Origin: a virus | Taxonomy: Duplodnaviria > Caudoviricetes | Strand: one strand, 5' to 3' | Length of the DNA stretch: 64,000 nt | Virus record (IMG/VR): IMGVR_UViG_3300008259_002461 | Shown here: one piece after another, positions 37,682 to 59,784 of the stretch | Layout of the letters: every line of letters starts with the position of its first letter | How positions within the stretch are numbered: the stretch's first letter is position 1 | Notes under the pieces: model-generated | What the model saw: only the letters and a program-made list of their open reading frames with translations | The model's database searches: none | What the model was told of the DNA's origin: nothing | Program-made: the position numbers and the translations under genes

Positions 37682-38172
37682 TTGAGTTTGTAACAAATAT
37701 AAAAGATTTTTGGTCAACTGATTTAGAAAAATTTGTCTTTCCAGTTATGTCACCTCTTAACACTAATGTAAGAGATTATTGGAATCATCCTAATTTTCAA
37801 AATGCCAAACCTCTCTTGCAAGCATTTGACAATGATTTACCAGAGTATTGGAATAAATTTCTAATTGAGCTAGGTACAACAGAAGGTACAGTATCTTGGA
37901 CTAACCTAGTACCGGGTCAAGTCCTACCTGTTCATACTGATGAGTTTTATAAACTAAGAACCAAGTACAATGTTGATATAGAAAAATGTAGAAGATATTT
38001 AATTTTTCTAAATGATTGGGTACTTGGACATTCTGTTGATTTTGAAGAAAAGACTATAACAAGATGGAAGTGTGGAGATGTTTGGTTATTTGATCATCGT
38101 TCATTCCACTGCGCCGCTAATGCTTCTACAGTAGATTTTATAACCTGTCAGGTTAATACTATTACGATTTAA
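37678..38172 (+). CDS. 2OG-Fe(II) oxygenase (AspH-like)
   Basis: LPVHTD...FHCAAN. Start moved to 37678. Confidence 0.72.
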   Translation: MIEFVTNIKDFWSTDLEKFVFPVMSPLNTNVRDYWNHPNFQNAKPLLQAFDNDLPEYWNKFLIELGTTEGTVSWTNLVPGQVLPVHTDEFYKLRTKYNVDIEKCRRYLIFLNDWVLGHSVDFEEKTITRWKCGDVWLFDHRSFHCAANASTVDFITCQVNTITI

Positions 38173-39314: not shown

Positions 39315-39344
39315 GTAAATACTCCTGGTATCAATATCATATAG

Positions 39345-39352
39345 TATTTATG
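39345..39352 (-). promoter_or_regulatory. Late promoter motif
   Basis: CATAAATA upstream of the AGGAG SD. The ATAAATACTAT 11-mer recurs at 63271-63281. Confidence 0.55.
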
Positions 39353-39367
39353 CCTTTGAATAAAAGA

Positions 39368-39703
39368 CTACTTGTTCTTTTTTAAGAAGCTTTTAGTGCG
39401 AGTTTGTATATCTCGTTTGATACGATCTGTATCTAACCTAAAATCAACGTTAATAATGTGCTCGTCGTACTCTTTAAACATCTGTTCGAGAACAGATTCT
39501 AAGTCTAAACTAGAGTGTTTTTGTCGAGATTTTTCAACGTCAATATCCCATACTTTTCCGCCCTTAAAGCTAACTCTAACGGAATGGAGATACTCTATGG
39601 GTACTGCTTCAACTCTAACATCTTGAAATACTTCAGGCCAATGTGCTATTACATCTTCAGGAAGTTCTGTTATTTTTTTAGGCACTTTCTTCGGATTTTG
39701 CAC
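39368..39703 (-). CDS. Hypothetical protein
   Basis: ORF within the operon. Start may be GTG 39685. Confidence 0.7.
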   Translation of the reverse strand: MQNPKKVPKKITELPEDVIAHWPEVFQDVRVEAVPIEYLHSVRVSFKGGKVWDIDVEKSRQKHSSLDLESVLEQMFKEYDEHIINVDFRLDTDRIKRDIQTRTKSFLKKNK

Positions 39704-40301
39704 TCTTTTTCTTTACAGGTGATAACTTATCTGCTTCTTCTCTAAGACGTTTAGCTTCTTTATATAATCGATCAGCATCGCTGCGATATTTAGAAGCTAT
39801 TTGATCATCTGTAAGTACGCCGTCGGCTGGTGCCGCAAGTGTTTGTATAGTAGCAATATCTGTAACCTCAACGGAGTTTTCGTCAGTATTTACTACTGAT
39901 GCAGTTTGCATATCAGAACTCTTAAGAGCTAATTCGTCAATACTTACACCTTTTTGTTGTGCAATTGCTTGATTTAAATCGCTTAACAAAATAGTAGTTT
40001 TCATATCCGGCGTCATTTCTACTAAATTAGTGGCCATTTTTACCATTTTACCTGTAACGTGAAATGCTGCCAACATATTCCTACCGTCTGGTAGTGATGT
40101 GCGAGCCATTGCTTCTGCAAATTCATAAGCAGTTTGGCCAGCATTTGATTCAATCAATTTCATTAAAGTGTCATGCTCGTCTGCTTGTAAGTTCTCTGTA
40201 GTAACTACAATACAGTTTTCTGCATCACCTGGTATTGTACGATACGCTACAACTATTTTTCTTTGGTTATTTTTTACTCTACCAACATGTTTTAGAGACA
40301 T
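39678..40301 (-). CDS. Hypothetical protein
   Basis: ORF with GGAG SD and coiled-coil C-terminus. Confidence 0.75.
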   Translation of the reverse strand: MSLKHVGRVKNNQRKIVVAYRTIPGDAENCIVVTTENLQADEHDTLMKLIESNAGQTAYEFAEAMARTSLPDGRNMLAAFHVTGKMVKMATNLVEMTPDMKTTILLSDLNQAIAQQKGVSIDELALKSSDMQTASVVNTDENSVEVTDIATIQTLAAPADGVLTDDQIASKYRSDADRLYKEAKRLREEADKLSPVKKKSAKSEESA

Positions 40302-40302
40302 A

Positions 40303-40536
40303 TTATTCTCCTTCTTTTTTAGGTTGTTGTGAAGCTACAGCGGCTAGAAATGCTTCTAGTTTATTGTATGTCTGTCCTACTACAACCATTTCGCTGGGTT
40401 TAAAAGTACCCCTTTGACTTGCAACATCAATAATTTGCTTTAGGGCGTTTAGATCCTGCACAGTTAGTTCTGCGCTAGGTTGTGCAGGTGCAGTTGTTGC
40501 AGTAGTTTCAGGTTGTTTCTTTTGTTCATCGCTCAT
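40303..40536 (-). CDS. Hypothetical protein
   Basis: ORF with AAGGAG SD. Confidence 0.7.
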   Translation of the reverse strand: MSDEQKKQPETTATTAPAQPSAELTVQDLNALKQIIDVASQRGTFKPSEMVVVGQTYNKLEAFLAAVASQQPKKEGE

Positions 40537-40569
40537 AATATCTCCTTAATTAAATGCGCTTTTTATTTA

Positions 40570-40848
40570 CTAGTATTTTAAATATGGACACGCCAAAGTG
40601 AAATAAGAAAGTTCTTTATGATCTTCAAAACCTATTTTTAACAAAGTTACTACTTGATTGGTAGAATCTACTTCTACAGTTTTTCCAACATAAAATCTGC
40701 CCTTTTGATGATCCATAATCCACTTTGCAATACTGTCTTGCAAGTTGTAATTCATGGGAACTGAGACATACTCAAAATGCTTTGGAGGCACTTTGAGTTG
40801 TCTCAGATCAAAAAAGTTTAAAGGATTTGGATCTTTAAGACGTAACAT
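40570..40848 (-). CDS. Hypothetical protein
   Basis: ORF coupled to the upstream stop codon. Confidence 0.7.
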   Translation of the reverse strand: MLRLKDPNPLNFFDLRQLKVPPKHFEYVSVPMNYNLQDSIAKWIMDHQKGRFYVGKTVEVDSTNQVVTLLKIGFEDHKELSYFTLACPYLKY

Positions 40849-42131
40849 TACTTGTCGTAGTGCGCAGTCAATCCAAACGGTGCTTGTAAATTTTTGTCAT
40901 GATGTCCGTGAACAATAAAAATAGTATCACAGTAATCATCCTCGCCCCAACTGTCCCACGGATAACCGTCAGTAAACATAATAAACTTTTTAGGGTTAAT
41001 ATCATGGTCTCTCATGTATTTCCAGTTAGCCATAAAGTCAGTACCGCCGCCGCCCATAATCTCGTAACTGAGCAAGTCATCGCCTGTGTCAGCAGTAAAG
41101 TCTTGTTCATTATACACTTTTGTATCAAAGCACCAAAGTTTAATTTGATAATCTTTGTACTCGTCCATAATGCCTTTAATTTCACTTAAAAAGTCTTTAG
41201 CCTGATCATCACCGATACTTCCGCTCATATCCAAACTAACAGCAATATCGATAGTTTCGTCGTATTGTTGTCCGGGTAATACGGCACCAGTATGCCAGCC
41301 TTTACGCGAAGGACGAGCAAAGGTAAAGTCATGCTTAATAGTGCTTTGGATTTGTTGACGCAGAAGTTCACGCCAATTCATTTTTGGCTCAGTAAGCTCT
41401 TTGATCATACGTACAATTTCGCCCGGAGTGTTACCAGCACCTGCTGCCTGTGCCGCTTGTAGCATGCCTTCTTTAATCTCGTCACGAATCTTTTGCATCT
41501 CATCTTTAGAATACTTTGGACGACCTTTGCCTTTACCGTCTTTGTCATCACCTTCTCCATCACCTTCACCGTCGAGGTCTAGGTGTTCGTCTAGCATAGA
41601 ACCTAGACTTTCTAGAAATTCTTTACCATTTTTTTGTGCTTGCTTAAATAGTTCTTCGTAAACTTCTTCGCTAGTCCAGCCAGCATATTTTGCATCTTTA
41701 AAGCAGTCTACTAGGGTAGGCTCTACACCAATTCGATCTCGAATTAACAAGTTGTTGACAATGTAGTCCTGTGCAATATTAGACAAAACTGGATCCATGT
41801 TACGATCTTGCCAAGTACGGCGACCAAGATGGTCAAATACACAATGCAGGATCTCGTGTGCAATAACAAACTCAATCTCTTTATTAGACATTGCATTAAA
41901 GAATTGAGTATTGAAATAAAGATTTCGACCGTCTACAGCGGCAGTAGGCAACCATTCATCTGCTGCCTGAATTCGCAAACGAGTTGCCATGTTACCAAAG
42001 AATGGGTGACGTAGAAGTAAGCCAACTCTTGCAACAATGATACGATCAAGAACTTCTGTACGCATCTCTGCAAGTTGTTCGGGTGTAATATTTGGATCAG
42101 GTGTCCATTGTTTTTTGCTTGCTACGCTCAT
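40848..42131 (-). CDS. VWA-domain protein with HExxH metallopeptidase-like domain (DUF2201-like)
   Basis: AHEILH, acidic linker and LDMSGS MIDAS motif. Confidence 0.85.
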   Translation of the reverse strand: MSVASKKQWTPDPNITPEQLAEMRTEVLDRIIVARVGLLLRHPFFGNMATRLRIQAADEWLPTAAVDGRNLYFNTQFFNAMSNKEIEFVIAHEILHCVFDHLGRRTWQDRNMDPVLSNIAQDYIVNNLLIRDRIGVEPTLVDCFKDAKYAGWTSEEVYEELFKQAQKNGKEFLESLGSMLDEHLDLDGEGDGEGDDKDGKGKGRPKYSKDEMQKIRDEIKEGMLQAAQAAGAGNTPGEIVRMIKELTEPKMNWRELLRQQIQSTIKHDFTFARPSRKGWHTGAVLPGQQYDETIDIAVSLDMSGSIGDDQAKDFLSEIKGIMDEYKDYQIKLWCFDTKVYNEQDFTADTGDDLLSYEIMGGGGTDFMANWKYMRDHDINPKKFIMFTDGYPWDSWGEDDYCDTIFIVHGHHDKNLQAPFGLTAHYDK

Positions 42132-42162
42132 ATGCTATACTCCTATGTAACTGTATATATGT

Positions 42163-42190
42163 ATTATACAGCATTTGCGGATAAAGTCAA
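42163..42190 (-). promoter_or_regulatory. Sigma70-like promoter
   Basis: TTGACT-16 nt-TATAAT. Confidence 0.6.
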
Positions 42191-42224
42191 GAAAGAAAGT
42201 GGGCGTTTTTTGGAGAAACGCCCA
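42191..42224 (-). terminator. Rho-independent terminator
   Basis: 9-bp stem tgggcgttt/aaacgccca followed by a U-rich tract on the minus strand. Confidence 0.65.
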
Positions 42225-42235
42225 TAAACTCTATA

Positions 42236-43327
42236 TTACGCCTTTTGAGCGGCAGTAATATACTTACCAAATCGACTGTGGAACTCGTCAAAACATTCGA
42301 CTTCGTCCGGATCAATTGGCAAGCTGTACTGAGTAAGAGCGAGTTTGATGCCCATAACAACCAATTCAGTTTCAAAATTATCCATTGCAAAGCGCAGGAA
42401 ATTGTTAACTTTATTGTCAAACTTCTTATCGCTCTTGTCAGACGCCTCTTTTAGCTCGTAGCAGAGCGAGACTGTCAAGGAATACATGGCACTGATTTCT
42501 TTAGTCTTCAGCTCCTTTACCTTGCCATCCAAAATATCTGTTGGATTAGGCATCTGACTGGCAACCTTGCGGTGCGCCATAAACTTAACAGCAAGACCTT
42601 CACCGACTGCGCCAGAGACTAGGTCAGTAAGTGTATTGCTATCAAGCTCGTCATCTAACAGTTCGCTAACAAAGGACCACGAACGTGGAGTAGCAAACGA
42701 ACGGCTAGGGGACTTTGGATCAAAGTCGTAGAGGTCCTTCTTGCTAAAAGTCAAGAAGCCTACAACGTCTCTGTGGATACTATGATTTACAGCCCATTGG
42801 AACCAGTCATCAAAATTGACAGCCATTTCCAAGTGAACAAAACGGTTAGCTAACGGAGCAGGCATACGATAAGTAACACCTTTGTCAGCTTCTCGATTAC
42901 CGGCTGCAACAATAAACACGTTATCGGGCAATTTGTATTGTCCAACTCGACGGTTCAAAACTAATTGATAAGCCGCTGCCTGTACGCTAGGAGCCGCACT
43001 ATTCATTTCATCTAAGAACAAAATAATATTTTCGTGCTTTGATGCCATGATCTCATCAGGCAATTCTGCCGGAGGAGCCCAAACCATTTTACCTTGATTA
43101 GAATCAAAGTAAGGAATACCTTTAATGTCTGTAGGTTCCCAAAGAGATAGACGAACGTCAATTACGTGAGCGTTCATATATTCACCAATTTGGTGAACAA
43201 CATCAGATTTACCAATACCTGGGGGACCCCACAGGAAAATTGGTCGACGTTTGATGATTGCATGTTTAATGCTAGCTTTTGCCGAATTAGGCGAAAGTTG
43301 ACGGGCCGATGAGCTTTCCGATGCCAT
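42236..43327 (-). CDS. MoxR-like AAA+ ATPase
   Basis: GPPGIGKS Walker A, LFLDE Walker B, AAGN and PLANRF. Confidence 0.9.
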   Translation of the reverse strand: MASESSSARQLSPNSAKASIKHAIIKRRPIFLWGPPGIGKSDVVHQIGEYMNAHVIDVRLSLWEPTDIKGIPYFDSNQGKMVWAPPAELPDEIMASKHENIILFLDEMNSAAPSVQAAAYQLVLNRRVGQYKLPDNVFIVAAGNREADKGVTYRMPAPLANRFVHLEMAVNFDDWFQWAVNHSIHRDVVGFLTFSKKDLYDFDPKSPSRSFATPRSWSFVSELLDDELDSNTLTDLVSGAVGEGLAVKFMAHRKVASQMPNPTDILDGKVKELKTKEISAMYSLTVSLCYELKEASDKSDKKFDNKVNNFLRFAMDNFETELVVMGIKLALTQYSLPIDPDEVECFDEFHSRFGKYITAAQKA

Positions 43328-44415: not shown

Positions 44416-44869
44416 GACTTAACTCCTGTCTCATTTCTATCTCAGTCCTAAACGGACCTTTAGTTTCGTAGCGTTCTACAGTGATCAGCTTTGGACAAAA
44501 ACTTTTGACCCAACCTTTTTCAAAGTGAATCACATAATATCCTGCACAATATAAACTTTTTGATTTAGCTGATTTTGTAAAAAGAGGAAGTTTTCGTTTT
44601 ACATCAAATATAGGATTGTGTGGTTGACACGATGTTGCATAGCCGTGAACTTCTTTGGTATAGTCTTTGGCTATTTTAAGAGCAGTCCATGTTACATCGT
44701 TACCTAAGGTTTTCTTAAGTTGTTTTTGATTTTCAAAAAATCGTGTGCCAGCTTTGTCGCTTAGGATATACTTTTCATCGTTATAAGAAATGGTAGCTAC
44801 ATTTTCACCATCTTCCTCAACAATCCAAAATTTACCACCTAATATTTCTTTCGCTATCATTTTATTCAT
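44399..44869 (-). CDS. Hypothetical protein
   Basis: Start moved to ATG 44869 (ATGA overlap). Confidence 0.7.
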   Translation of the reverse strand: MNKMIAKEILGGKFWIVEEDGENVATISYNDEKYILSDKAGTRFFENQKQLKKTLGNDVTWTALKIAKDYTKEVHGYATSCQPHNPIFDVKRKLPLFTKSAKSKSLYCAGYYVIHFEKGWVKSFCPKLITVERYETKGPFRTEIEMRQELSRVNTK

Positions 44870-45852
44870 CCCGGATACCTCGCATTTAATGGTACAGCAT
44901 ATAACTGTGCATTGTCGGCCACTCGTTGCATGTCCCACTTAGCACAAAATTTAATCAGTCGCATTCCAACTTGTGTAATGTCTTTTGGAAAGCTAGCTTG
45001 TTTAATTGTATTATTAATTAGTTCTTTAATTTCTAAAGGTTGTGCTGTTAAATCGCATAGAGTCACATTTCTATTATAGTCGTCTAACACACGATGTTCT
45101 ACACCCTCGTGATCGGACCAACGTTGCAACATGAGATTATTCCAAGCATAGCCTTTGGTATTCTTATCAGCATATGCTTCAGTAAGGCCTACTTTATTCT
45201 TAGTACCTTTAACTCTAACACCAGGATATGCACTAAAGACATTATCACTAGTATCGCCACGCATACATTTTTCAAATAGCAACCAATCTGGATTAGGGGC
45301 AGGCTTAATTTCTTTCGTTTTCTTATCAATTACAGACTTACCCTTGTCGTCAAAATAGCCTTCATGAGTAGTTGTAATATTACTGACACCATTATATTGT
45401 TTTACGTTTGGTGCAATGAGTTGTGCAAAGTCGCCGTCTGTAGAAATAATCACGTGATTGTCATGCGGGTGATTCTGCACCCAGCCTGCAATCAAGTCAT
45501 CTGCTTCTAGTTGTGGGTGTTGCATTACAGTACAATTTGTTTTAGTTTGTACAAAATCTTTAAACTCGTCAAAGATTTCCCAAAACATTTTATCTTCCTC
45601 AGCTTCACGGGGAGTGAGCGCATCACGAGTTTCTTGTCGATTTCGCTTGTAAGGTTGATAAAAATCTTTACGCCAGCTACGTCCCTCAAGACAGAATACT
45701 ACATGATCTGCATTAAAGTCAGTCCAAGCCTTTTTAATCGAATTGAATGTAATATGCAGGGCCATGCCCACTTTTGTGTCAAGGTCACCACGTACTACGT
45801 GTCGAGCTCTAAAAAAAGTGTTTGCAGTATCTACTAGGATGTATGTGCTCAT
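44866..45852 (-). CDS. rnh: T4-type RNase H / 5'-3' flap exonuclease
   Basis: ILVD..N, WRKDFYQPYKRNR, EADD, STDGDFAQL and GDTSDN. Confidence 0.9.
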   Translation of the reverse strand: MSTYILVDTANTFFRARHVVRGDLDTKVGMALHITFNSIKKAWTDFNADHVVFCLEGRSWRKDFYQPYKRNRQETRDALTPREAEEDKMFWEIFDEFKDFVQTKTNCTVMQHPQLEADDLIAGWVQNHPHDNHVIISTDGDFAQLIAPNVKQYNGVSNITTTHEGYFDDKGKSVIDKKTKEIKPAPNPDWLLFEKCMRGDTSDNVFSAYPGVRVKGTKNKVGLTEAYADKNTKGYAWNNLMLQRWSDHEGVEHRVLDDYNRNVTLCDLTAQPLEIKELINNTIKQASFPKDITQVGMRLIKFCAKWDMQRVADNAQLYAVPLNARYPG

Positions 45853-46298
45853 GAAACTTCGCTTTTGCCTTTTGCAATTGGTACTACATTAATATAACCA
45901 GCGCCGCGATTTGCATCCATGCCTTCTTCACTTAGCATTTGTGATACAATGTCGCGGAACCAACGATCTACAACTTCTTCATCTGGATCACCTTCAAACC
46001 CGTATCCAGCTTGTCTTAATTGTACTATAAAAAGGTCATTCCAGTCAAGCTCAAAAAATCCATTCCTAATATTTTCTGGATTAACTTTAGTATCAAGCAC
46101 CGCTACCCAAGGTTCTCCTTTAACTGTAGCACGTTCTTTTGGTGTCAATTTAGCTTGTTCTTCTGCTTTGGCAGCACGTTCAGCAGCCTCAGTGGCTGTT
46201 TTGGCTGCTTTGGCAGCGGCTGTAGCTATTGCCATATTACGTTCAGCTTCTGCCTTGATCTTATCTATGCCAAATAATTTTTCTATAAATTTTTTCAT
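45849..46298 (-). CDS. Hypothetical protein
   Basis: Start moved to 46298. Confidence 0.7.
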   Translation of the reverse strand: MKKFIEKLFGIDKIKAEAERNMAIATAAAKAAKTATEAAERAAKAEEQAKLTPKERATVKGEPWVAVLDTKVNPENIRNGFFELDWNDLFIVQLRQAGYGFEGDPDEEVVDRWFRDIVSQMLSEEGMDANRGAGYINVVPIAKGKSEVS

Positions 46299-47155
46299 TA
46301 AGTACCCCATTCATTTTTAAATAGCGGCACTTGCAAACGATCGCTATAGCGTAATCCGTTTTTCATTGCCAGTAATGCTACATTCTTATTGTTTAGTGCG
46401 TACACACTTTCTACACCGCCAACTGGCATTAGATAAACATGCCCGTCAAAACCAGCCGCACGATATTCTTCAGTTGCACGTTTAGCATCTTCAAAATCTT
46501 GTTCTGTAGCAATAACAAACTTCAAATATGCTGTACCAACTTTTTCGTATTCACAAACTATTTCAGGAAGAATTGCTTCTTCCCACTTCTCACCACTACA
46601 TGGAAGTTTAGCACTTACACTGAATGTAACTTCTCTCTCGTCACTACCAAGAAACCAATCTGTTAAGTATTCTTTAAATTCTGGAGTAAGTCTCTGGGTA
46701 CCGTTTGTTTCAAATGTAATCTCTTTCAAACCCGCCATCTTAGGATGACTTAGCAAGTCTGGATAAGCACGTTGCCAACCTAGTAAAGGTTCGCCGCCTG
46801 TAATTACAAGATGTTCGTCTTCCCACTCATTGTATGGCAGTATCTCCATAATGCGATCAGCAATGGCATCACTAGTAAGCATTGGACTTAGATCTTTAAA
46901 TGCTGGATGCCAACTTGCATAACTATCACATCCTGTACTTACTAACGGAAGTTCTTCATATTTTTGAAAAGACTCTATATTTGCATGTGTATACGCAATA
47001 TCATCTGCTTCAATACTAATTTTATCACGCGGCATACCAAAGCCTGCACATTTAAAGTTGCAGCCGAATGTGCGTAAAAAGACACTAGGTACACCCATGT
47101 ACCTACCTTCGCCTTGTATACTGTAAAAAAGTTCTGCTATTTTTATTTTGCTCAT
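46298..47155 (-). CDS. queE: 7-carboxy-7-deazaguanine synthase (radical SAM)
   Basis: ELFYSIQGEG, FLRTFGCNFKC, ITGGEPLL, ETNGT and RLQVPL. Confidence 0.88.
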   Translation of the reverse strand: MSKIKIAELFYSIQGEGRYMGVPSVFLRTFGCNFKCAGFGMPRDKISIEADDIAYTHANIESFQKYEELPLVSTGCDSYASWHPAFKDLSPMLTSDAIADRIMEILPYNEWEDEHLVITGGEPLLGWQRAYPDLLSHPKMAGLKEITFETNGTQRLTPEFKEYLTDWFLGSDEREVTFSVSAKLPCSGEKWEEAILPEIVCEYEKVGTAYLKFVIATEQDFEDAKRATEEYRAAGFDGHVYLMPVGGVESVYALNNKNVALLAMKNGLRYSDRLQVPLFKNEWGT

Positions 47156-48308: not shown

Positions 48309-49148
48309 TTATCTCGGTGCAAACTCTTGTTGTAATTTGATATTGTCAAAGAATTCTTTCTTTGTATGAGGATCATCTTTAAATGTTCCTTTAAGGACTG
48401 TAGTCTGTGTTAGTGAGCTATGCGCCATAATGCCGCGATTCTCACAACATCCATGTGTTGCTTGAATGTATACTGCTACGTTTTCGGAGTCAGTAGCTTT
48501 ACTAATCTCACGGGCAATGTCGTTGCAAAGCTCCTCCTGGAGTGTGCCTCGTCTAGCACACCACTGTGCAATACGTGTGTACTTGCTGAGCCCAATAAGT
48601 TTCTGAGCGGCAATAATACCAATATAAGCAACGCCACTAACGGGTTGATGATGATGACTGCACATACTGCGAAGCTCACTACGAACAACCAACATACCTT
48701 CGTAACGGTCCTGCGAGTCGTTTGGAAATGCTGTTGCGTCTGGTCCTGGTTCATATCTGCCACTCATAATTTCGTTGAAGTACATTTTAGCAAGCCGTCT
48801 TGCTGTACCATGCGAGTTAGGATCGTTTTCACGATCAATCAACAAAGTATCTAATACTTGTTCAAATGCTTCTGTAGCTTCGTTGATTAAATGTTCTTTA
48901 TCACTTTCGTGTAAGTAATCACTTATATTGTCTCCAGCCCAATATCTCTTTCCTTCTCTTTTCATTTTAGCACGTAGTACAGCAGATAGACTAGATTCCT
49001 TATATCCGCCGTCACCTGCCATTGCGTCAAGTGCTGTTTCTTTTTTAATATAAACCGGCTTACCCAATGGTTCATATTTCTCTTCAACAAACTCCCTGTT
49101 GTCAGGACCGTTCATTATCGGATCCGGTTTAAATTCTGCTTTTGTCAA
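48309..49148 (-). CDS. folE: GTP cyclohydrolase I
   Basis: TARRLAKMY, SMCSHH, GLSK..RI, LQEEL and HGCCENRG. TTG start follows GGAG. Confidence 0.95.
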   Translation of the reverse strand: MTKAEFKPDPIMNGPDNREFVEEKYEPLGKPVYIKKETALDAMAGDGGYKESSLSAVLRAKMKREGKRYWAGDNISDYLHESDKEHLINEATEAFEQVLDTLLIDRENDPNSHGTARRLAKMYFNEIMSGRYEPGPDATAFPNDSQDRYEGMLVVRSELRSMCSHHHQPVSGVAYIGIIAAQKLIGLSKYTRIAQWCARRGTLQEELCNDIAREISKATDSENVAVYIQATHGCCENRGIMAHSSLTQTTVLKGTFKDDPHTKKEFFDNIKLQQEFAPR

Positions 49149-49424: not shown

Positions 49425-49593
49425 TGTCTCCTTGTTCTAATGCTTCTTTTAATTGCTTATCTTCATACTCAGCTAAACGTTGTCTAAATTCTTCTTCAGG
49501 CAGTCCGTGCCAACCAATACATTTACCTGTAGGACTGCGACCACATCCGCAGTTACCGATTTCGTTAACATCTTCTTTTACTCTTACTTGCAT
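49414..49593 (-). CDS. CDGSH-like 3Cys-1His [2Fe-2S] small protein (not in ORF track)
   Basis: My translation: MQVRVKEDVNEIGNCGCGRSPTGKCIGWHGLPEEEFRQRLAEYEDKQLKEALEQGDNDA (59 aa). It fills the gap and overlaps both neighbours. Confidence 0.65.
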   Translation of the reverse strand: MQVRVKEDVNEIGNCGCGRSPTGKCIGWHGLPEEEFRQRLAEYEDKQLKEALEQGDNDA

Positions 49594-49937
49594 ATAGTTT
49601 CCTTTTTATAGTTGCCTTTTTCTGGTATAACATGACGTACTCCGCCTCTAGGATCTTCCATGTCTCCCTTTCTACGGGGAATTAAGTGTATGTGCGGATA
49701 CATAACAGTTTGGCCTGCTGCCTCGCCTACATTTTGTCCAATATTAAATGCATCGCAGTATCCACGCTCAACCCAGTCATAACCCCACTTGTAGGCTGCT
49801 TCCCAACATTTTACCATGTGAGACCAATCTTCTACTTTAGGTACAAACAATAAATGTCCGTCAGTTACAGGAAATCCGTCCTTGTATACTGTAAAATCTT
49901 TAGAATCAATTAATACGTTAGTCCATGGTCCTGGCAT
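49584..49937 (-). CDS. HIT family nucleotide hydrolase
   Basis: GHLLFVPK, NIGQNVGEAAGQTV and YPHIHLIPRR. Confidence 0.85.
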   Translation of the reverse strand: MPGPWTNVLIDSKDFTVYKDGFPVTDGHLLFVPKVEDWSHMVKCWEAAYKWGYDWVERGYCDAFNIGQNVGEAAGQTVMYPHIHLIPRRKGDMEDPRGGVRHVIPEKGNYKKETICK

Positions 49938-50169
49938 TTTTCTGTTCCTCATAGGATTTAAATAAACGAGTTACTGCTTCCATTTGTTCTTGGAATACAT
50001 CTGGTGCGCCGTCGGCTGCACGTTTCATATCCCAGTCGCTAGGATAATGACGCAAACAATGTCTAGCGCCGTCTTTAATTGCTTTCGGGACTCGAGGAGT
50101 ATTCAGAATCTCAACTAAAAATTTTTGAGTCTGTACCACTGCTCGATACCTTTCGTCAGGTAGTGTCAT
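49918..50169 (-). CDS. Hypothetical protein
   Basis: MTLPDERYRAV start at 50169. Confidence 0.65.
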   Translation of the reverse strand: MTLPDERYRAVVQTQKFLVEILNTPRVPKAIKDGARHCLRHYPSDWDMKRAADGAPDVFQEQMEAVTRLFKSYEEQKNARTMD

Positions 50170-50711
50170 TCTGATTGTTCCCATGGATATACTAACCAAA
50201 CATCTTCTTCTGCCTTGTTTACTTCTGTACTGTAGTAGCTAACTTCGTCAAACTTAGAACTTAGATTGTTAGTTAGCACTGCAAATCTAACGTTCTTACC
50301 CCACACACTATTCCATGCTGAATCTTCGTTTGGAAAACATCCACTAGACCAATCTTCTTTGATCCAATTAAACGTAGCACCGGTATCGTTGATATCATCG
50401 ATAACAAGGATATTCTTTCTTTTTGAAATATCCCATCTACTCTTTAATGTCAATTGCTCTTCAGGTGATACAACCCCAAATGCATCTTCAGCTATACCTA
50501 AATCACTTACACATTGGCCACCATCACGCAGACTAACTTCTAGTGGGCGCATAGGAATATCAGTTAGATGACTTAGTATTACAGCAGGTATAGCACCGCC
50601 ACGAGTAATACCAACAATGTAGTCTGGACGCCAATTATCTTTGTACATCTGCATACTGATGCCTACACACATGTGTTGAATATCAGACCAAGTGTAGTAG
50701 AGTTTCTTCAT
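50166..50711 (-). CDS. Type I (purine) phosphoribosyltransferase
   Basis: IVGITRGG, LVIDDINDTGAT (PRPP loop) and VYPWE. Confidence 0.88.
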   Translation of the reverse strand: MKKLYYTWSDIQHMCVGISMQMYKDNWRPDYIVGITRGGAIPAVILSHLTDIPMRPLEVSLRDGGQCVSDLGIAEDAFGVVSPEEQLTLKSRWDISKRKNILVIDDINDTGATFNWIKEDWSSGCFPNEDSAWNSVWGKNVRFAVLTNNLSSKFDEVSYYSTEVNKAEEDVWLVYPWEQSE

Positions 50712-50938: not shown

Positions 50939-51360
50939 TTTGAGTCCTTTATAGTTTCAAATATTTTATACTTTTCTTCGGCAAGTCGATACTCTTGTGC
51001 CGCCTCTTTAATTTTTATATTAACATCACTTTGAAGTTTTTGCAAGAGTAATTGATATTGTTCTCCTGATTGTTTAAGTCCTTTAAACTTTGATTCTAAA
51101 TCCCTGTTACGATTTACAACGCCAGTGACTGCCATTAAATCTTTAAGTACTTGTTCAACATCAATGCCGTTAACGTCAAGCGGAACAGTAACAGTCATCC
51201 GACCTTGATTTATTATCAAACTAGCATCTACAGACGAATTAGTAATTGCAGAGGTAGTATATCCACCATTGACTACTGTATTGTTATTAGGAGCAAGATT
51301 ATTATACAATGAATTAACAGTCCATGCAATCGGATTGGATTTAGTATTAACTGTTCCCAT
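50935..51360 (-). CDS. Hypothetical protein
   Basis: Low-complexity N-terminus and coiled-coil C-terminus. Confidence 0.65.
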   Translation of the reverse strand: MGTVNTKSNPIAWTVNSLYNNLAPNNNTVVNGGYTTSAITNSSVDASLIINQGRMTVTVPLDVNGIDVEQVLKDLMAVTGVVNRNRDLESKFKGLKQSGEQYQLLLQKLQSDVNIKIKEAAQEYRLAEEKYKIFETIKDSK

Positions 51361-51799
51361 GCCGTTCCTTTAGATATTGTTCGTTTGGTATCCATTTATT
51401 GTTAACTAAAAATCCCCAATCACGTTTATGTGGACCAGGCATAAAAAGTGTCCAAGCAGTGACACCTTCTTTTAGTTCAATGCGATGATAGCTATTAGGA
51501 CTGCAAATACGGAAATGCCCAGGACCTCTCCATTTACGCACTTCACATGATTTAGTGCCGTCTGAATTAAATTGCGGAATCCATTCGTAGTAACCGCCTT
51601 TAAGAATTAATGTAGCATAAGGCCAAGGATGATCATGTACATCATCTGGATCGCCTTTTAAAAACTTGTGTAAAAATATATTGAAAGGAAAACGTTCTCT
51701 TTCTTTTAAGAAAAGATAGTAACGCTCTAAATACGGCTCGTCATTAACACGATCCATAATAATTCTTTTTCTACCTAAACGTTCAAGAATTTTCAGCAT
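51347..51799 (-). CDS. Cupin-fold protein
   Basis: DVHDHPW..GGYYE..YHRIEL. Start moved to 51799. Confidence 0.7.
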   Translation of the reverse strand: MLKILERLGRKRIIMDRVNDEPYLERYYLFLKERERFPFNIFLHKFLKGDPDDVHDHPWPYATLILKGGYYEWIPQFNSDGTKSCEVRKWRGPGHFRICSPNSYHRIELKEGVTAWTLFMPGPHKRDWGFLVNNKWIPNEQYLKERHGNS

Positions 51800-52181
51800 C
51801 TTTCTTACCTTTCCAATCTTGTAGTACAAGATCGTATACTGTTTTGAAGTTTTCGTATACCTTTGCTAGTGCAGGGTATTCTTTACACATAGATTCAACT
51901 TCAACTATTTCGATATGCGTGTTTTGTGTGGTTACCCACCATTGGGGGTCTACAGGGCTTATTGTAGTGTAAGTTCCACCAGCGCCGCTGGTTATCGTAT
52001 TATATCCACCTGCACCACTGCCTATACTAATAGTATCATCAAGAGTTATTGTATAACTGCTATCTATTGAACCTAGATCTTGTGCTAGGATGCCAACACC
52101 GCTACCGCCAAGATATGTAGTTGTTGAACCGTATGTGTCGTTTAAATTTATAACAACAGTGTTGGAATCTTTATCATCCAT
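51783..52181 (-). CDS. Hypothetical protein
   Basis: G/S/T-rich N-terminus and helical C-terminus. Confidence 0.65.
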   Translation of the reverse strand: MDDKDSNTVVINLNDTYGSTTTYLGGSGVGILAQDLGSIDSSYTITLDDTISIGSGAGGYNTITSGAGGTYTTISPVDPQWWVTTQNTHIEIVEVESMCKEYPALAKVYENFKTVYDLVLQDWKGKKDAENS

Positions 52182-53265
52182 TTATTGCCTCATAAAGAGC
52201 TTTTCCTGAGAAGAATTCTTTTTTAAGTTTTGCTGTTTGTTTAAGTAAGCTAGGAAGAAAACTTTCGTAATTTTCCATATATTCAACTACTTGATTTACT
52301 ATTTGTTTTCTATTTTGAATATAAGATCCAAAATCTTCTGTCCATGTACTAGGATACTTAAACTCTGCTAAAGCCATTTCAGAATAGCTTAAACGATCAG
52401 GAACCATTGGAATAGCATTTACTAGAGCGCCTTCGTACCAACTAATACCTAATGTTTCTTGCAAGTTAGCTGAAAACACTAATTTAGCACGACCAAGAAT
52501 ATTATGATATTCGTTCTTAGTTAATTGTTGCTCTTGACAAATTACAAATTCATACTGAGGTAGTTGTTCTTTAAGATCGCGAAAAATATCAACTTGTTTC
52601 TCGGGAGCAATACGATGAGGGAAAACAATTAAATTTTCCTTATCCATGCATTTGTAACTGTCTAGGCTGTGTTCTAGATATTCCATAGGCCAGCCCACAC
52701 GTTTGATTCTAGGATGTTCGCCAGCCAATGCATCAGCTATATCATCTTCTATCCAAGGATTATCTAGACCAAACAATGTTCTTACAAACATGTCAATGTG
52801 AAAATCTGTAGCAAAGAAGTTATCGTCGTATGTAAAAAACATACTCTGTTCAGCATGTCTTACCCAAGGCTTGTTTCCAATCAGTCGACCTAAGAAATCT
52901 TGAGGATCATAACTACCAGCATGCCATAAGCCACCAATTCTGATATTAATGTTTAGCAATTCAGCCATGTAACGAAGCTGTATAACTGTAGGGTTCCACG
53001 CATCAGTATAAAGGAAGTAGTCGCCATCTTTAACATCTCCCCTACAAAACATCTCCCCTATGGTTTCCAACTGTTTACTTTTATAAACATTAGTACCACC
53101 AAAATTAAGAAATGCTCCAGGAGTTGTAGCTTGTGGTGTATCACCGCCACTAATGACTACTACTTCTTTATTCGTAGCATGATGCAGTTGTTTAGGTAAG
53201 TATTCCTTCCACTGCTTAGTATAGCGAGTGTCAACTGCTTCAATATCTACGATATAGATTGTCAT
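52174..53265 (-). CDS. GT-B (GT4-like) glycosyltransferase
   Basis: FPHRIAPEKQ, NLQETLGISWYEG (ExFGxxxxE-like) and VPDRLSYSEM. Confidence 0.75.
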   Translation of the reverse strand: MTIYIVDIEAVDTRYTKQWKEYLPKQLHHATNKEVVVISGGDTPQATTPGAFLNFGGTNVYKSKQLETIGEMFCRGDVKDGDYFLYTDAWNPTVIQLRYMAELLNINIRIGGLWHAGSYDPQDFLGRLIGNKPWVRHAEQSMFFTYDDNFFATDFHIDMFVRTLFGLDNPWIEDDIADALAGEHPRIKRVGWPMEYLEHSLDSYKCMDKENLIVFPHRIAPEKQVDIFRDLKEQLPQYEFVICQEQQLTKNEYHNILGRAKLVFSANLQETLGISWYEGALVNAIPMVPDRLSYSEMALAEFKYPSTWTEDFGSYIQNRKQIVNQVVEYMENYESFLPSLLKQTAKLKKEFFSGKALYEAING

Positions 53266-53519
53266 TAAGAACCTCTACGGTCGTAAAAACGTTTTGCACC
53301 ATTGTTAGTATTGGTGTTATTGTTGTAATTATTAAATCTACCACGACTCTTCGATTTGTAGATTAAGAATTTTTGGTAAGCCTGCCAAACAGGCGACTGG
53401 GTATCATAAAGATCCTTCTCATCGAAAGGATACCCACCGTAACCTTCGAAGCGACAAAAGTCGCGGAACTTATCCAAGTCGTCGAAAATTTTATTGACTG
53501 GAGGAAAAGTTTGTGCCAT
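53265..53519 (-). CDS. Hypothetical protein
   Basis: 84-aa ORF within the operon. Confidence 0.65.
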   Translation of the reverse strand: MAQTFPPVNKIFDDLDKFRDFCRFEGYGGYPFDEKDLYDTQSPVWQAYQKFLIYKSKSRGRFNNYNNNTNTNNGAKRFYDRRGS

Positions 53520-53532
53520 TTTAATTTACCTT

Positions 53533-53922
53533 TTAAAGATTGAATGGATAATAGATAAGTGAGCCGTTTTCTCCATCTTCGGAGACTTCTATTTCGACAA
53601 AGCGGCCTGGAAACTTTGAACGAATTTGCTGATACAAATCATCTGAAATCATCTCACATGATTTGTGATTCAGTTCTAGTGTGCCTTGATTATAAAGATT
53701 TTCTAACCAACGCTTAAATTGAATAAATTCGATGTCACGATCGTCGTGAAACACTTCGATACGAATTTTAAAGTGAAAAATGTGTCTATGGGGATAGCCT
53801 AGAAAACTTACGTCATACTGATCTCCAGTTTTTAGATTAGGGTCTGTAAGTGCTGCCGGGTAAAGATGAATGCCTTCTTTACGGAAGGTTACCCAGATGC
53901 TTTTTGTAATTGCTGTACTCAT
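53533..53922 (-). CDS. queD: QueD/PTPS-like T-fold enzyme
   Basis: EGIH..HRHIFH metal site, IEFIQFK, SCEMI and EDGENG. Confidence 0.6.
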   Translation of the reverse strand: MSTAITKSIWVTFRKEGIHLYPAALTDPNLKTGDQYDVSFLGYPHRHIFHFKIRIEVFHDDRDIEFIQFKRWLENLYNQGTLELNHKSCEMISDDLYQQIRSKFPGRFVEIEVSEDGENGSLIYYPFNL

Positions 53923-53928
53923 GTTCTT

Positions 53929-53957
53929 ATGATACTTTCAATGTAGGTAGTTGTCAA
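53929..53957 (-). promoter_or_regulatory. Sigma70 promoter, probably leaderless transcript
   Basis: TTGACA-17 nt-TATCAT with the ATG 6 nt downstream. Confidence 0.65.
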
Positions 53958-53958
53958 C

Positions 53959-54483
53959 TTATTTGATAACTTCGTCTTCGGAATATTGAGACCATTCGGT
54001 AAACTTTGAACGATCCATTAGGTCGTGTAGGCTGTGACACCAAACACCGGGATTAGATGCTTTAAAATCTTTGTCGTCAATCTTAAGCATTGTGTTGTAA
54101 TTCCATAAACGGATGTATGGAATAGGAACTCGAATCTGTGGAATAAAATTGCTATACTCGTTAAATGCACTGTCGTTGAATGTTTCAACGTGGGATAATG
54201 GAATGTCTAAAGTACATAGAACACCTTGTTCCAAGAATGGAAGAATCATAGATTCCCACTCTAACCATGCGTCAAAGCTACCTATGTCAGGATGAAAGCT
54301 GTGATTAGCACCAAAGAAAATATGCTTTACATCTTGTTCGATCATGTGCTTTTCTACAACGTCTGGACTATGAACCCCTGTAACAAACAGTGTGGGCATT
54401 CCATAAGCAGGAGTTTTTTCTATTTCATATCCAAAGAAAAATACTGCGTCATCTGCTTCACCTGTGCTGTAATCTCTTTTCAT
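53959..54483 (-). CDS. Hypothetical protein between the TGT-like and QueD-like genes
   Basis: 174-aa ORF with HIFFGANHSF and NPGVWCH, fold unrecognised. Confidence 0.75.
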   Translation of the reverse strand: MKRDYSTGEADDAVFFFGYEIEKTPAYGMPTLFVTGVHSPDVVEKHMIEQDVKHIFFGANHSFHPDIGSFDAWLEWESMILPFLEQGVLCTLDIPLSHVETFNDSAFNEYSNFIPQIRVPIPYIRLWNYNTMLKIDDKDFKASNPGVWCHSLHDLMDRSKFTEWSQYSEDEVIK

Positions 54484-54689
54484 GTTAAAGTCATTCTTAT
54501 TAATTGTTGGTTGATTCGATGTATCTCGTCTTTAAGCCATAGCTTCATAGTTTTCTTTTTTCGAACTTCGTCTGAGGCTGTTATATTATTATAGCGTACT
54601 TCAATTTCTGTGTCAAGCTCTTTATGTCGCCGTTCTAATTCTTCTAGATGTGCTTTGAGTTTATCATAGTCATTATTAAAGTTGCTCAT
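54480..54689 (-). CDS. DUF465/YdcH-like coiled-coil protein
   Basis: LEELERRHKELD..KLWLKDEI. Confidence 0.6.
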   Translation of the reverse strand: MSNFNNDYDKLKAHLEELERRHKELDTEIEVRYNNITASDEVRKKKTMKLWLKDEIHRINQQLIRMTLT

Positions 54690-56235
54690 CCTCTAACGCC
54701 TCCAATTTATGTTCTTCATCTTCTGTAAAACAACCATCTTCCAGTTCTTCTACTTCAGGTTCAACTACATCAAACAAAGCTCCAAAATATGTGCTAGAGT
54801 TTACAGTCTTTTTACCAATGGCGCCTCTAGTGCCTGGAATAGCCATCCAAAACTTTGAGTTTTGTTCTATCAACTTATTTGCAGCTTCTCTTGTAGTCTG
54901 TGAAAAGATTTCTTCTACAAGATCTCTAAAGAACACCCTGTCAAACTTTTCTTGTACAAGCATGTTTGGTACAACTCCAGCATCATACTGTCTGTTAGCT
55001 TCCTGTACTGCATTAATATGGCTCCAAACATTATGGCCCATTTGAATAGCGTAACTAAAACTATCCCAACTTGTGCGACCTTCTTTGCCAATTTTATTCA
55101 AGTCACCTGGTTTGTAAACGCATACATCACTAACTTTCATTTCTGCTGTAATAGGACTATCTTCAAAGTTTTTAAAGATACCATCTTGCAATACTGCTTG
55201 TTTAAAAGTTCTAGTATCAGTTGCATACTTTTTATCGTCAATGCTTGGAACCATTCTATAGGTCCACTTGCCTCTATCAGGTGTTTCGTTCTGAATATAA
55301 ATCTGTCCATTAGCAGTTGCTAAGAATGGACTTGCACAGTCAAATGTCAACATCATAGTAGGATTGTAATACTTACGAATAGCACGTTGTAAGTCTGTAA
55401 GCAAACATGCCCACTCTAACTTACTAGTACCCAAGAAGTGCATTACATCATGTACGCCACTTTGTAGTAAGCCATCAAAGTGTAGTGCTACTATACGTTT
55501 AAGTACTAGATGCACGTCACACATATTTTGCCCACCCATTGACCACCCATTAAAGTGATTGTCAGGATACTTAACTGGATCGCAATAATCTTTCATCTGC
55601 TGATACCAATCTTCTGCATCTGTATGATTCTCACCTTGTAGTACGTTTAAGAACTTACAAGCACCTGTACGATGCTTCATCCAATAATCGTTATTGATAC
55701 GTGTTGCGGTTACAGCTTCGTCGTATGTACTAATGCCTGTAGCTTTTGCACCTTCGGGTGAGCGAGCGACCCAGGCAGGAATATCAAGTACCATGCCATA
55801 GTCCATATACGCATCCATCCAACGTAATACACCATCTCGTTTCTTTTGTGCCTTAGGACAATTAGGATCTTTCCAATCACCTTCCCAAACACCCTTACCA
55901 ATCTGGAAACCACCTGAGTCGCCTAGTAACCAAGTGTTTTGACGATCCCTGTTCCGTACCATATCTTCTTTAGGCACAATTTTGTTTGTATCTAAATCAG
56001 CGTGACCCGCAGAGTAAAGCGTCCACTTATAGGTAAACGCTCCCTGTTGTGCATTTAGATAGTTAAGACTTTCTACACCATTTTGAAAGTTAGCCGGAAT
56101 ACGAGTGTCTTCGATGTAAGGACCTTTAACAGGATCAGGAAAACGCTGCTTGCCCACGTAAGTTGCATAAAAGCCACTTAGTGCTGGTAAAAAGTGTGCG
56201 TAATCGTTTTGTGTTGCTGTTAAGTCTTTATTCAT
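54676..56235 (-). CDS. dpdA: Guanine transglycosylase family protein (DpdA/TGT-like)
   Basis: GDSGGFQ, VLDIP, VLQG, SMGG, HFLG and TFDCAS (TGT catalytic Asp motifs). Confidence 0.75.
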   Translation of the reverse strand: MNKDLTATQNDYAHFLPALSGFYATYVGKQRFPDPVKGPYIEDTRIPANFQNGVESLNYLNAQQGAFTYKWTLYSAGHADLDTNKIVPKEDMVRNRDRQNTWLLGDSGGFQIGKGVWEGDWKDPNCPKAQKKRDGVLRWMDAYMDYGMVLDIPAWVARSPEGAKATGISTYDEAVTATRINNDYWMKHRTGACKFLNVLQGENHTDAEDWYQQMKDYCDPVKYPDNHFNGWSMGGQNMCDVHLVLKRIVALHFDGLLQSGVHDVMHFLGTSKLEWACLLTDLQRAIRKYYNPTMMLTFDCASPFLATANGQIYIQNETPDRGKWTYRMVPSIDDKKYATDTRTFKQAVLQDGIFKNFEDSPITAEMKVSDVCVYKPGDLNKIGKEGRTSWDSFSYAIQMGHNVWSHINAVQEANRQYDAGVVPNMLVQEKFDRVFFRDLVEEIFSQTTREAANKLIEQNSKFWMAIPGTRGAIGKKTVNSSTYFGALFDVVEPEVEELEDGCFTEDEEHKLEALEDEQL

Positions 56236-58183: not shown

Positions 58184-59224
58184 TTAGTCTCCAAAGTCAA
58201 ACAAACTGTTGAAGGTATTGTGTCGCTTAGTATCCTCTAATGGATAGTCCAGCACTCCAATCAAATTGTCTAACTTATTATCAATAATAGTTTCTGCCAT
58301 TGCTGCATCATCAAATGGCAGTTCTTTGAACCATTCAGGCATACGTAATTCATCTGTTGGATAAGCAACACTTGTATAGCCCAATGGGTTTTGTTTTAGT
58401 TTGCAAACAATAACTTTCATGCCGTCAACAATCTCTTGCGAGTATTTGTCTCCGTTCATACGTTTAAGTGTATTCCAATTAATACTTGCTCTAACGTGGC
58501 CGGGCATGTTTGCTTTGCCCTGTTTTGCTTCGAGTCGTTGATAGTGTCCAATCTTGTTTGCACGTTTTGGACTACCTTTCTCCCAACCCGGACGTTCACT
58601 AAACTCTTGCCGGAATCTTGTAATACGTTCTAATACATCTTCTCTAGGTTTATCTGTAAGCACCATAAGCAATAGTTCGCTTAGAAATTCTTGCATAAAC
58701 ACAGGTGTATCACTTCTACGCAGGTCTAAGCCCATAGCCTTTACTTTGCCTGGCTTACCATCTACGTCACTGCGGAAACCTTCTGTGTCATATACCAGAG
58801 CCGCATAACGTTTTTTAGTAATAAACAATCCGCTTTCAGCAACAATCTCACGACCTGCGGCAATAACTTCTGCTCGACTTTTTGGACAATGAAATGATTT
58901 TGCCATCATGTCAACAAACGTAGCATTGGCTGCTTCTGCTACTTGATCGTAAAGTGTAATAACATTTTCTTTAGACCACGGAATCTTACCTGCTTCTACT
59001 TCTTTACTGAGAGTAGGCCAAGCACTAAAATACACAGAGTCAGTGTCACCGTAAATTACTGCCTCACCAACGTGATCATAAACACCAGTAATAACTTTGT
59101 TTACTTCTGCACTCATGTGTTTAACAATAGTACGACCAGTAAGAGTAGTACTATTGTTAGAGCAACATCCTTGCGCTTGCTCATAACAGCTTCGTATTCT
59201 TCTGTTGCAAAACGACCTTCCCAA
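58184..59224 (-). pseudogene. polB: Family B DNA polymerase, C-terminal fragment (motif C, thumb)
   Basis: STTLTGR, YGDTDS, KKRYA and KAMGL. Homology begins near 59150 and the first about 25 aa are off-frame. Confidence 0.85.
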
Positions 59225-59784
59225 CTTCCAGCAAATGTTTTTTTCTTAAGAGTTATGTCTTCGTGAACACGAGCATCACTGATGTCTAGTCGTATTTGTC
59301 CAACGATAGTTTCTGGAGCCATATTCAAAGCACGAATCACTGACGGATACAGAGAGTTCAAGTCCATCGAACCAATCCATTTGTGCAAGCCTTTTTTAGG
59401 AAACGCAACGTATGCACCTGCGGCTTGTATATTTTCTTCGTTATCTCTGTTTGTACGATTGGGAACCTGCAATCCACGATTGTGAGCTTCGTTGATAATA
59501 CCTTGTTCAGTAACAGCAACAGCACCCATTGTAGTTTGGATAAGCACGGTGTTCTCATGTGCAATGGTATTACTCAAATCAATAAAGCGCAGTTTTTTAT
59601 CTAACTTATCAAGTAGTGCAGTATCTTGAATGTTGTATTGAATAAACTTTTTAAAGTCATTGTTGTAAAGCTGATCCAACGTACCTTCGTATGCTGTCTT
59701 GTTTTCGCCTACTTCAATTTCACCAATAGCATCTAGTCGATAACTGTGACGTTCTTCATAGGTATACTTACGATACAAGTTCAA
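59113..59784 (-). pseudogene. polB: Family B DNA polymerase, middle fragment (ExoIII, motif A)
   Basis: YRLDAI, YNIQD, GAYV and SMDLNSLYPS. Motif B (KxxxNSxYG) is absent. Confidence 0.85.
59122..59159. repeat. 12-bp inverted repeat at polB junction 2
   Basis: taacaatagtac (59122-59133), 14-nt loop, gtactattgtta (59148-59159). Confidence 0.8.

Follow-up and report, generated by a model that had tools for sequence, protein, structure and literature searches.

Here we describe a gene cluster in the DNA of an uncultured member of the Caudoviricetes (IMG/VR record IMGVR_UViG_3300008259_002461), of which a stretch of 64,000 nucleotides, referred to below as the window, was analysed. The cluster consists of six minus-strand open reading frames (ORFs) at positions 52174-56235, which encode proteins of 519, 69, 174, 129, 84 and 363 aa and either overlap or are separated by gaps of at most 36 nt. 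Three of the products are central to this account: a 519-aa protein predicted to have the fold of a tRNA-guanine transglycosylase (TGT) and read here as a candidate DpdA, a 129-aa protein assigned to DpdL, and a 363-aa GT4-like glycosyltransferase (GT). The reading that we put forward, tentatively, is that the GT places a sugar on a 7-deazaguanine base carried in the phage DNA.

The source of the window is an uncultured freshwater jumbo phage, because a megablast search of 16 kb against the cultured-phage collection gave no nucleotide match, freshwater and lake metagenomes contain the window DNA at 98-100% of sampled words, and a copy of the 519-aa gene with 93% identity lies on a viral contig of 357 kb whose completeness is rated at 100%. 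This contig was used as the genome-level proxy for the window and is called the complete relative below.

An earlier sequence-only reading of the window had listed the six ORFs as TGT-like, DUF465-like, unknown (174 aa), QueD-like, unknown and GT4-like genes, with folE and queE nearby. The run of six genes is present on the minus strand as described, the DUF465-like gene matches PF04325 (30.6 bits), and folE and queE were located at 48309-49148 and 46298-47155, respectively, by matches to Pfam, PHROG and NCBIfam models.

DpdA, DpdL and the base pathway

Direct searches with the 519-aa protein gave no sequence match in Pfam, PHROG, NCBIfam or the PDB (phmmer). The Pfam TGT family (PF01702) was matched neither by this protein at E <= 0.01 nor in five related genomes at E <= 0.1, and a hidden Markov model built from 54 DpdA-like homologues retrieved no TGT from the PDB; recognition came only from structure and from hhalign. 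The AlphaFold model (AF2) has a predicted local distance difference test (pLDDT) score of 91 and a predicted template modelling (pTM) score of 0.90. When this model was compared with the PDB using Foldseek, the top 50 matches were all tRNA-guanine transglycosylases (E ~1e-6). VIA structural alignment gave Z scores of 17-18 over about 300 residues, spanning residues 10-428; the alignment with 2ash_A had a Z score of 17.9 and a root-mean-square deviation of 4.6 over 305 aligned residues. Regarding the hhalign comparisons of the 519-aa profile, the probability was 96% for the DpdA of Acidovorax phage ACP17, 93.7% for DpdA2 of Vibrio phage nt-1, 90.9% for Escherichia coli TGT and 42% for DpdA3 of Cellulophaga phage phiST.

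In the hhalign alignment, D106, D151 and D299 pair with the catalytic and base-recognition aspartates D89, D143 and D264 of E. coli TGT, and all three are invariant among the 54 homologues. The zinc site of TGTs (CxCxxC...H) is not conserved: past D299, only C372 (67%), H401 (83%) and H406 (33%) reach 30% Cys or His, and they are not clustered. The model and the profile comparisons lead us to interpret the 519-aa protein as a DpdA that has diverged strongly and stands closest to the DpdA2/ACP17 type. The TGT-like label given to it from the letters alone finds no library match, but it agrees with the modelled fold and the three aligned aspartates. The family to which it belongs is large: clustering at 90% identity gives more than 7,000 groups, and clustering at 50% gives 939. 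Its distant representatives could be traced to short contigs only. The 519-aa gene lies within 10 kb of FolE and QueE genes, and DpdA is similarly encoded with deazaguanine synthesis genes in phage PA5oct and in all 39 of the viral contigs surveyed below.

The tail of the 519-aa protein is disordered at residues 470-497, where the motif FGALF is followed by acidic residues. The motif echoes the C-terminus of the family-B polymerase of the same phage (TFNSLFDFGD). The pattern [FLIM]xx[LM]F occurs in 21 of the 54 family tails, against 5.7 expected and a maximum of 14 in 1000 shuffles. The FGALF tail may be a clamp-docking peptide that recruits DpdA to the replisome.

DpdL was defined as a QueD paralogue in which the CxxxHGH motif is replaced by LxxxHRHxF, found in phages that encode FolE, QueD, QueE and DpdA but not QueC; its proposed role is that of a decarboxylase which converts 7-carboxy-7-deazaguanine (CDG) to 7-deazaguanine (PMC10516641). 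The 129-aa protein of the window contains the exact LxxxHRHxF signature, matches phrog_17812, and is 69% identical to its homologue in phage Phosso, 56% to ACP17 gp125 (E 1.5e-48), 53% to that of PA5oct and 33% to phiST CGPG_00067. Judged by its own LxxxHRHxF signature, gp125 is probably the dpdL product of ACP17, although the locus tag is absent from the paper. By signature and by this identity to the ACP17 protein, the 129-aa protein is assigned to DpdL and not to QueD, so that the earlier QueD-like label has to be replaced. QueD proper was not found within the window, but a canonical QueD is encoded elsewhere in the genomes of the complete relative, PA5oct and Phosso.

No QueC above cut-off was found in the complete relative, in PA5oct, Phosso, ACP17, Xanthomonas phage X1 and Burkholderia phage BCSR5, or in two more large contigs. 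For the window alone, it had been reported that no queF, Gat-QueC or ArcS was visible; as regards QueC, the absence now extends to the complete relative and seven other GT-carrying genomes. Because QueC is absent, preQ0 would not be made; because DpdL is present and QueC absent, the base pathway corresponds to the published route to 7-deazaguanine in DNA (dDG) (PMC10516641). Judged by gene content, it is the known dDG-type route of phage phiST and not a new one. The DNA of phiST carries plain dDG, with full replacement (PMC10516641). That study expressed dpdL from two phages, one of them ACP17; co-expression of ACP17 dpdA and dpdL alone yielded no dDG, and the authors suggested that an enzyme was missing (PMC10516641).

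Two observations concern DpdL in other phages. Vibrio phage Bakedbeans encodes a 383-aa protein (gp176; locus L182, 4215-5366) whose C-terminal third is DpdL and whose N-terminal part has no similarity to phiST DpdA3. Rhizobium phage RHph_I1_18, which is free of the GT, has a macro-domain (Appr-1-p processing) protein after DpdL, in the slot usually occupied by the GT (locus L181, 6417-7241).

The glycosyltransferase and its genomic linkage

Direct Pfam, PHROG, NCBIfam and PDB (phmmer) searches with the 363-aa protein gave no significant match. By tblastn the protein is linked to homologues in X1 and BCSR5 (E 5e-20 and 9e-20, respectively), and these homologues, which lie beside DpdA, pass the PF00534 cut-off with 45.5 and 42 bits. 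In an alignment of 18 members, the EX7E motif (E270, E278) and basic residues are invariant, as in retaining GT4 enzymes. The best PDB match of the family profile is the GT4 enzyme WlaC (E 0.0045), and the Atlas language-model neighbours of the protein bear Glycos_transf_1. These features support its assignment as a GT4-like glycosyltransferase and uphold the label under which it was first described, chiefly through the invariant EX7E and the DpdA-adjacent homologues of X1 and BCSR5.

The linkage of the GT to the other genes was surveyed in 50,697 cultured-phage records, in which the GT was counted at E <= 9e-20. It was found in 17 records (PA5oct-like phages, Phosso, ACP17, X1, BUDD and BCSR5), whereas DpdL was found in 28, and all 17 GT records were among those 28. 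The GT adjoins DpdA in PA5oct, ACP17, X1 and BCSR5, and adjoins DpdL and FolE in Phosso. Five weaker matches, in PhiXhv-type Xanthomonas and Erwinia phages, occur in a sugar-metabolism context and not among Dpd genes. From the distribution in these records, the GT appears to need the DpdL pathway, whereas the DpdL pathway does not appear to need the GT.

Viral contigs were also scanned with the GT as anchor, and the loci flanked by 5 kb or more on each side (n=39) were counted. DpdA and DpdL were present within 8 kb in 39 of 39 loci, FolE in 38 and QueE in 35. Single-protein locus scans using the GTs of ACP17 and X1 gave no additional loci. The order of the minimal module is PolB-DpdA-DpdL-GT-FolE-QueE. 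Because the GT is retained in these minimal modules, it is regarded as core, and the 174-aa, DUF465, 84-aa, phosphoribosyltransferase (PRTase), HIT and epimerase genes as accessory. Regarding the accessory genes, the 174-aa protein was present in 26 loci, the 84-aa protein in 19, the epimerase in 18, the HIT protein in 16 and the DUF465 protein in eight. A further gene of the window, at 51347-51829, encodes a 160-aa protein that matches phrog_4786 ('cysteine dioxygenase', E 3e-39) and occurs in 15 of the 39 loci.

The features of the locus are listed in Table 1. They are embedded in a replication module with a split family-B polymerase (58184-59784), a structural protein and a 5'-3' exonuclease (44866-45852), together with the FolE, QueE-like, PRTase, HIT and epimerase genes. 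The polymerase is encoded by at least two ORFs, of 346 and 223 aa, that overlap; the homologous gene of PA5oct is interrupted by a homing endonuclease (gp173/gp172/gp171).

Table 1. Coordinates of the features of the cluster and of associated genes in the window
Feature	Position	Strand	Remarks
Diverged DpdA candidate (DNA guanine transglycosylase), 519 aa	54676..56235	-	Predicted TGT barrel, residues ~10-428, and disordered acidic tail
FGALF motif in DpdA tail, residues 484-488	54772..54786	-	Resembles polymerase C-terminus; possible clamp docking
DUF465 small coiled-coil protein, 69 aa	54480..54689	-	PF04325, 30.6 bits
174-aa accessory protein, small alpha/beta fold	53959..54483	-	~5000 homologues; weak QueE resemblance
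Sigma-70-like promoter, 36-nt gap directly before dpdL	53929..53957	-	11/12 consensus positions; consensus match only
DpdL, QueD paralogue, proposed CDG decarboxylase, 129 aa	53533..53922	-	LxxxHRHxF signature; phrog_17812
84-aa protein with low-complexity tail	53265..53519	-	ORF only
GT4-like glycosyltransferase (presumed GT-B, retaining type), 363 aa	52174..53265	-	EX7E; homologues in PF00534
Purine (6-oxopurine type) phosphoribosyltransferase, 181 aa, accessory	50166..50711	-	PF00156
HIT-domain nucleotide hydrolase or transferase, 122 aa, accessory	49584..49952	-	PF01230
FolE, GTP cyclohydrolase I	48309..49148	-	PF01227, 137 bits
QueE-like radical SAM enzyme (CDG synthase)	46298..47155	-	phrog_2076, E 4.7e-51; partial matches to NCBIfam QueE models
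Short NAD-dependent nucleotide-sugar epimerase/dehydratase, 241 aa	57342..58067	-	PF01370, 84.8 bits

For the 174-aa protein, direct Pfam, PHROG, NCBIfam and PDB (phmmer) searches gave no match. Its homologues number about 5000; one of them, ACP17 gp122, is 26% identical (E 6e-11) and sits between FolE and DpdA. Its model (pLDDT 75) has QueE as the best PDB match, at a Z score of 6.4, and reaches a template modelling (TM) score of 0.60 to QueE clusters in the Atlas; compared with QueE it is without the Fe-S cysteines and has no sequence-level support. The suggested kinship with QueE, which headed the matches of several searches, is thus a weak lead and not a convincing fold. The sequence-only reading had linked this protein to the TGT-like gene; its absence from minimal modules makes it an accessory. 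The DUF465 protein is a lineage-specific filler. The best PDB matches of the PRTase are the purine phosphoribosyltransferase 1vdm (E 2.9e-11) and hypoxanthine-guanine phosphoribosyltransferases, and PA5oct gp163 is a distant homologue; those of the epimerase are dTDP-glucose dehydratase and UDP-glucose epimerases, with PA5oct gp164 as a weak homologue.

Besides the promoter-like site before dpdL, a perfect sigma-70 consensus (12/12; TTGACA, 17 nt, TATAAT) lies upstream of folE at 49217-49189, and a second perfect 12/12 consensus match is found at 54616-54588. The near-perfect sites before dpdL and folE would fit early expression. An Rfam scan of 44-60 kb, including the folE leader, gave no riboswitch, and the T4-type late promoter TATAAATA is not enriched in the window.

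Positions 1-38000 form a low-GC island (~30% vs 38% elsewhere in the window) rich in radical SAM and SPASM proteins, in which 11 of 20 tested ORFs match PF04055 and/or PF13186, which is unusual for a phage; a cold-shock-domain/2-oxoglutarate-oxygenase fusion (19827-20858) and a methyltransferase (23094-24065) are also encoded there. The protein at 38169-39314 has a major-tropism-determinant N-terminal domain and may be the target of a diversity-generating retroelement. After it, within 38169-43327, come a DUF2201 metallopeptidase/VWA protein and a MoxR-type AAA ATPase.

Proposed role of the glycosyltransferase

The pathway that we envisage would begin with FolE and QueE, encoded in the window, and QueD, encoded elsewhere in the genome, which by homology would make CDG. 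DpdL would decarboxylate CDG to 7-deazaguanine. The TGT-fold enzyme, in which the catalytic aspartates are kept, would then exchange guanine in the phage DNA for the deazapurine, perhaps brought to the replisome by its polymerase-like C-terminal peptide. The GT4-like enzyme, presumably co-transcribed with dpdL, would move a sugar from a nucleotide sugar to the modified base, whether this is already part of the DNA or still awaits insertion, and the adjacent epimerase could provide or tailor the sugar donor. Restriction would be blocked by the glycosylated deazaguanine that results. The PRTase may recycle the guanine released in the exchange, or could instead make a deazapurine nucleotide.

That the cluster is a replication-linked DNA 7-deazaguanine module of DpdL (dDG) type, with an integral GT that puts a sugar on the modified base, is the reading we favour, at a little under an even chance. 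The more specific proposal, in which the sugar is added to 7-deazaguanine in the phage DNA, possibly at the electron-rich C7 or C8, or to another DpdL product, is held with noticeably more reserve. Taken overall, glycosylation of the base is plausible and the most economical account, although it stays short of being probable. What had been suggested from the letters, a deazaguanine DNA-modification gene set with a linked GT and perhaps a new derivative, stands as regards the gene set, and the linkage proves stronger than one window could indicate; the base pathway itself had already been published.

Indirect evidence on the modified base comes from PA5oct. Its virion DNA resists five enzymes with G-containing sites, from which its authors infer a modified G without chemistry; gp167 and gp168 go unmentioned there (PMC12191111). 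As to the acceptor, no gene of the thymidylate-synthase family (PF00303) was found in ACP17 or X1, so that a hydroxymethyl pyrimidine is not the GT acceptor in these two phages; a single full-length ThyA-like match (258-419 bits) occurs in each of the relative G001, PA5oct and Phosso. The GT might also explain why the reconstitution with ACP17 DpdA and DpdL failed.

Several points weigh on the other side. The 363-aa protein itself scores 12.2 bits on PF00534, below the cut-off of 26.4. 7-Deazaguanine has no hydroxyl group and GT4 enzymes normally glycosylate oxygen, which leaves the acceptor atom unexplained. Phage phiST makes plain dDG without this GT (PMC10516641), and it is one of 11 DpdL records without a match to this GT family, among them also RHph_I1_18. 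The decarboxylase activity of DpdL is a proposal, and heterologous tests failed (PMC10516641). Most of the 39 contigs come from one broad phage group and hence are not 39 independent events; the independent support for the linkage is five or six separate lineages and not the raw contig count. Neither a glycosylated deazaguanine nor this GT was the subject of any paper in a literature search, and the literature searched yielded no mass spectrometry for any GT-carrying phage.

Four other explanations were considered, the first two being the chief competitors. The DNA could hold plain dDG or another simple deazaguanine, the GT being required for synthesis or insertion with no sugar in the final DNA; it could act as a structural partner of DpdA or through a transient glycosylated intermediate. 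The failed reconstitution from ACP17, which lacked the GT located between dpdA and dpdL, would be accounted for in this way, as would the tight placement of the GT beside DpdA in four lineages and the missing acceptor atom. We nevertheless consider it unlikely, since the invariant EX7E and basic residues point to real sugar transfer, phiST achieves full dDG replacement without this GT, and an epimerase-type nucleotide-sugar enzyme accompanies the module in many loci.

Alternatively, the target of the GT could be unrelated to deazaguanine (a virion or host protein, an envelope glycan or another metabolite), and the gene could be co-located through shared early expression. The usual substrates of GT4 enzymes are glycans or lipids, and the distant homologues in the PhiXhv-type Xanthomonas and Erwinia phages have genes of sugar metabolism as neighbours. 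Against this, DpdL accompanies the GT in all 17 of the closer records, the GT stays beside DpdA and DpdL despite rearrangements and differing DpdA subtypes, and it is retained in the most reduced modules; an unrelated target is accordingly given only a small share of the probability.

A lesser place is given to the entry of the deazapurine into DNA as a nucleotide, before or during replication, where the PRTase and the HIT protein would supply it, the polymerase would incorporate it and the TGT-like enzyme would be secondary. The cluster does contain a PRTase of the 6-oxopurine type and a HIT protein, the former with a distant homologue in PA5oct, and deazapurine antibiotic pathways couple CDG to phosphoribosyl pyrophosphate (PRPP). 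This route seems improbable, as both genes are absent from minimal modules and from ACP17, whereas no version of the module lacks DpdA, whose catalytic aspartates are invariant. Action of the TGT-like enzyme on host or phage tRNA, of which modification of host tRNA had been offered as an option in the sequence-only reading, agrees with the fold but is very improbable, given that neither the zinc site nor the tRNA-binding extension is conserved, that the nearest named relatives by profile are DNA-acting DpdAs, that the gene sits between polymerase and exonuclease genes in a replication module and has a polymerase-like tail, and that the DNA of the related phage PA5oct is modified and resistant at G-containing sites.

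Should glycosylation of the deazaguanine base be borne out, it would be new DNA chemistry, as every DNA sugar hypermodification described in the papers searched sits on pyrimidines, and no glycosylated purine would have been reported in any genome before it. It would require a new GT acceptor, and defences based on restriction, CRISPR or glycosylases would face a new obstacle. Its carriers would include a very abundant aquatic jumbo-phage group as well as the cultured phages PA5oct, ACP17, X1 and Phosso. The module is common, and cultures exist for several of the phages that carry it, among them PA5oct, a therapy candidate.

Comparison with known systems

In T-even phages, enzymes of GT-B type decorate an already modified DNA base (5-hydroxymethylcytosine) and thereby block restriction. 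The T-even DNA glucosyltransferases have no sequence match to the GT described here, and the acceptor would have to differ from the T-even one because ACP17 and X1 are without a hydroxymethylase-family gene. A GT4-class enzyme that glycosylates queuosine, a 7-deazaguanine derivative, is known from animal tRNA (QTMAN/GTDC1). Its acceptor is the cyclopentenediol of queuosine, which the pathway here cannot make; the QTMAN_N domain (PF12038) was not matched at E <= 1 in five GT-carrying genomes, although the two enzymes may be related very distantly.

Bacterial Tgt has the barrel in common with the 519-aa protein (Z scores of 17-18), with the three aspartates aligned to D89, D143 and D264 of the E. 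coli enzyme. The 519-aa protein differs in lying below Pfam TGT detection, in the missing CxCxxC...H site, in about 90 extra C-terminal residues and in its DNA-replication context. The best profile matches among named DpdAs are DpdA2 of the Vibrio phages nt-1 and VH7D and the DpdA of Acidovorax phage ACP17, with which the DSGG, D-x-P and (F/Y)D(S/C) blocks are common, whereas BLAST-level similarity to them is absent. DpdA2 of nt-1 is an experimentally active enzyme. Phages nt-1 and VH7D differ from the module here in that they encode QueC, insert preQ0 or preQ1 and are without this GT; ACP17 resembles the window in that it also encodes the GT, DpdL and a homologue of the 174-aa protein.

The dDG system of phiST (FolE, QueD, QueE, DpdL and DpdA3; Cui, Hutinet et al., NAR 2023, PMC10516641) has the same synthesis genes and likewise no QueC. 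The LxxxHRHxF signature of DpdL is common to both systems, and in both the transglycosylase adjoins the synthesis genes and the polymerase. In contrast, phiST has no homologue of the GT and lacks the 174-aa, PRTase, HIT and epimerase genes; its DpdA3 measures 259 aa and barely aligns with the 519-aa protein (hhalign 42%), and its DpdL is 33% identical.

Among these systems, the Pseudomonas jumbo phage PA5oct offers a parallel in gene order. It has no detectable homologues of the 174-aa, DUF465 and 84-aa proteins, and its DpdL motif reads HFH instead of HRH. Its gp167 and gp168 are annotated as hypothetical, and the preprint text searched credits the modification to QueE and PTPS only (PMC12191111). 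PA5oct is likewise without QueC, and its genes gp162-gp173 follow the order found here, with a split PolB, a structural protein, the DpdA-like gp168 (36% identity), the GT gp167 (43%), the DpdL gp166 (53%) and the QueE gp162.

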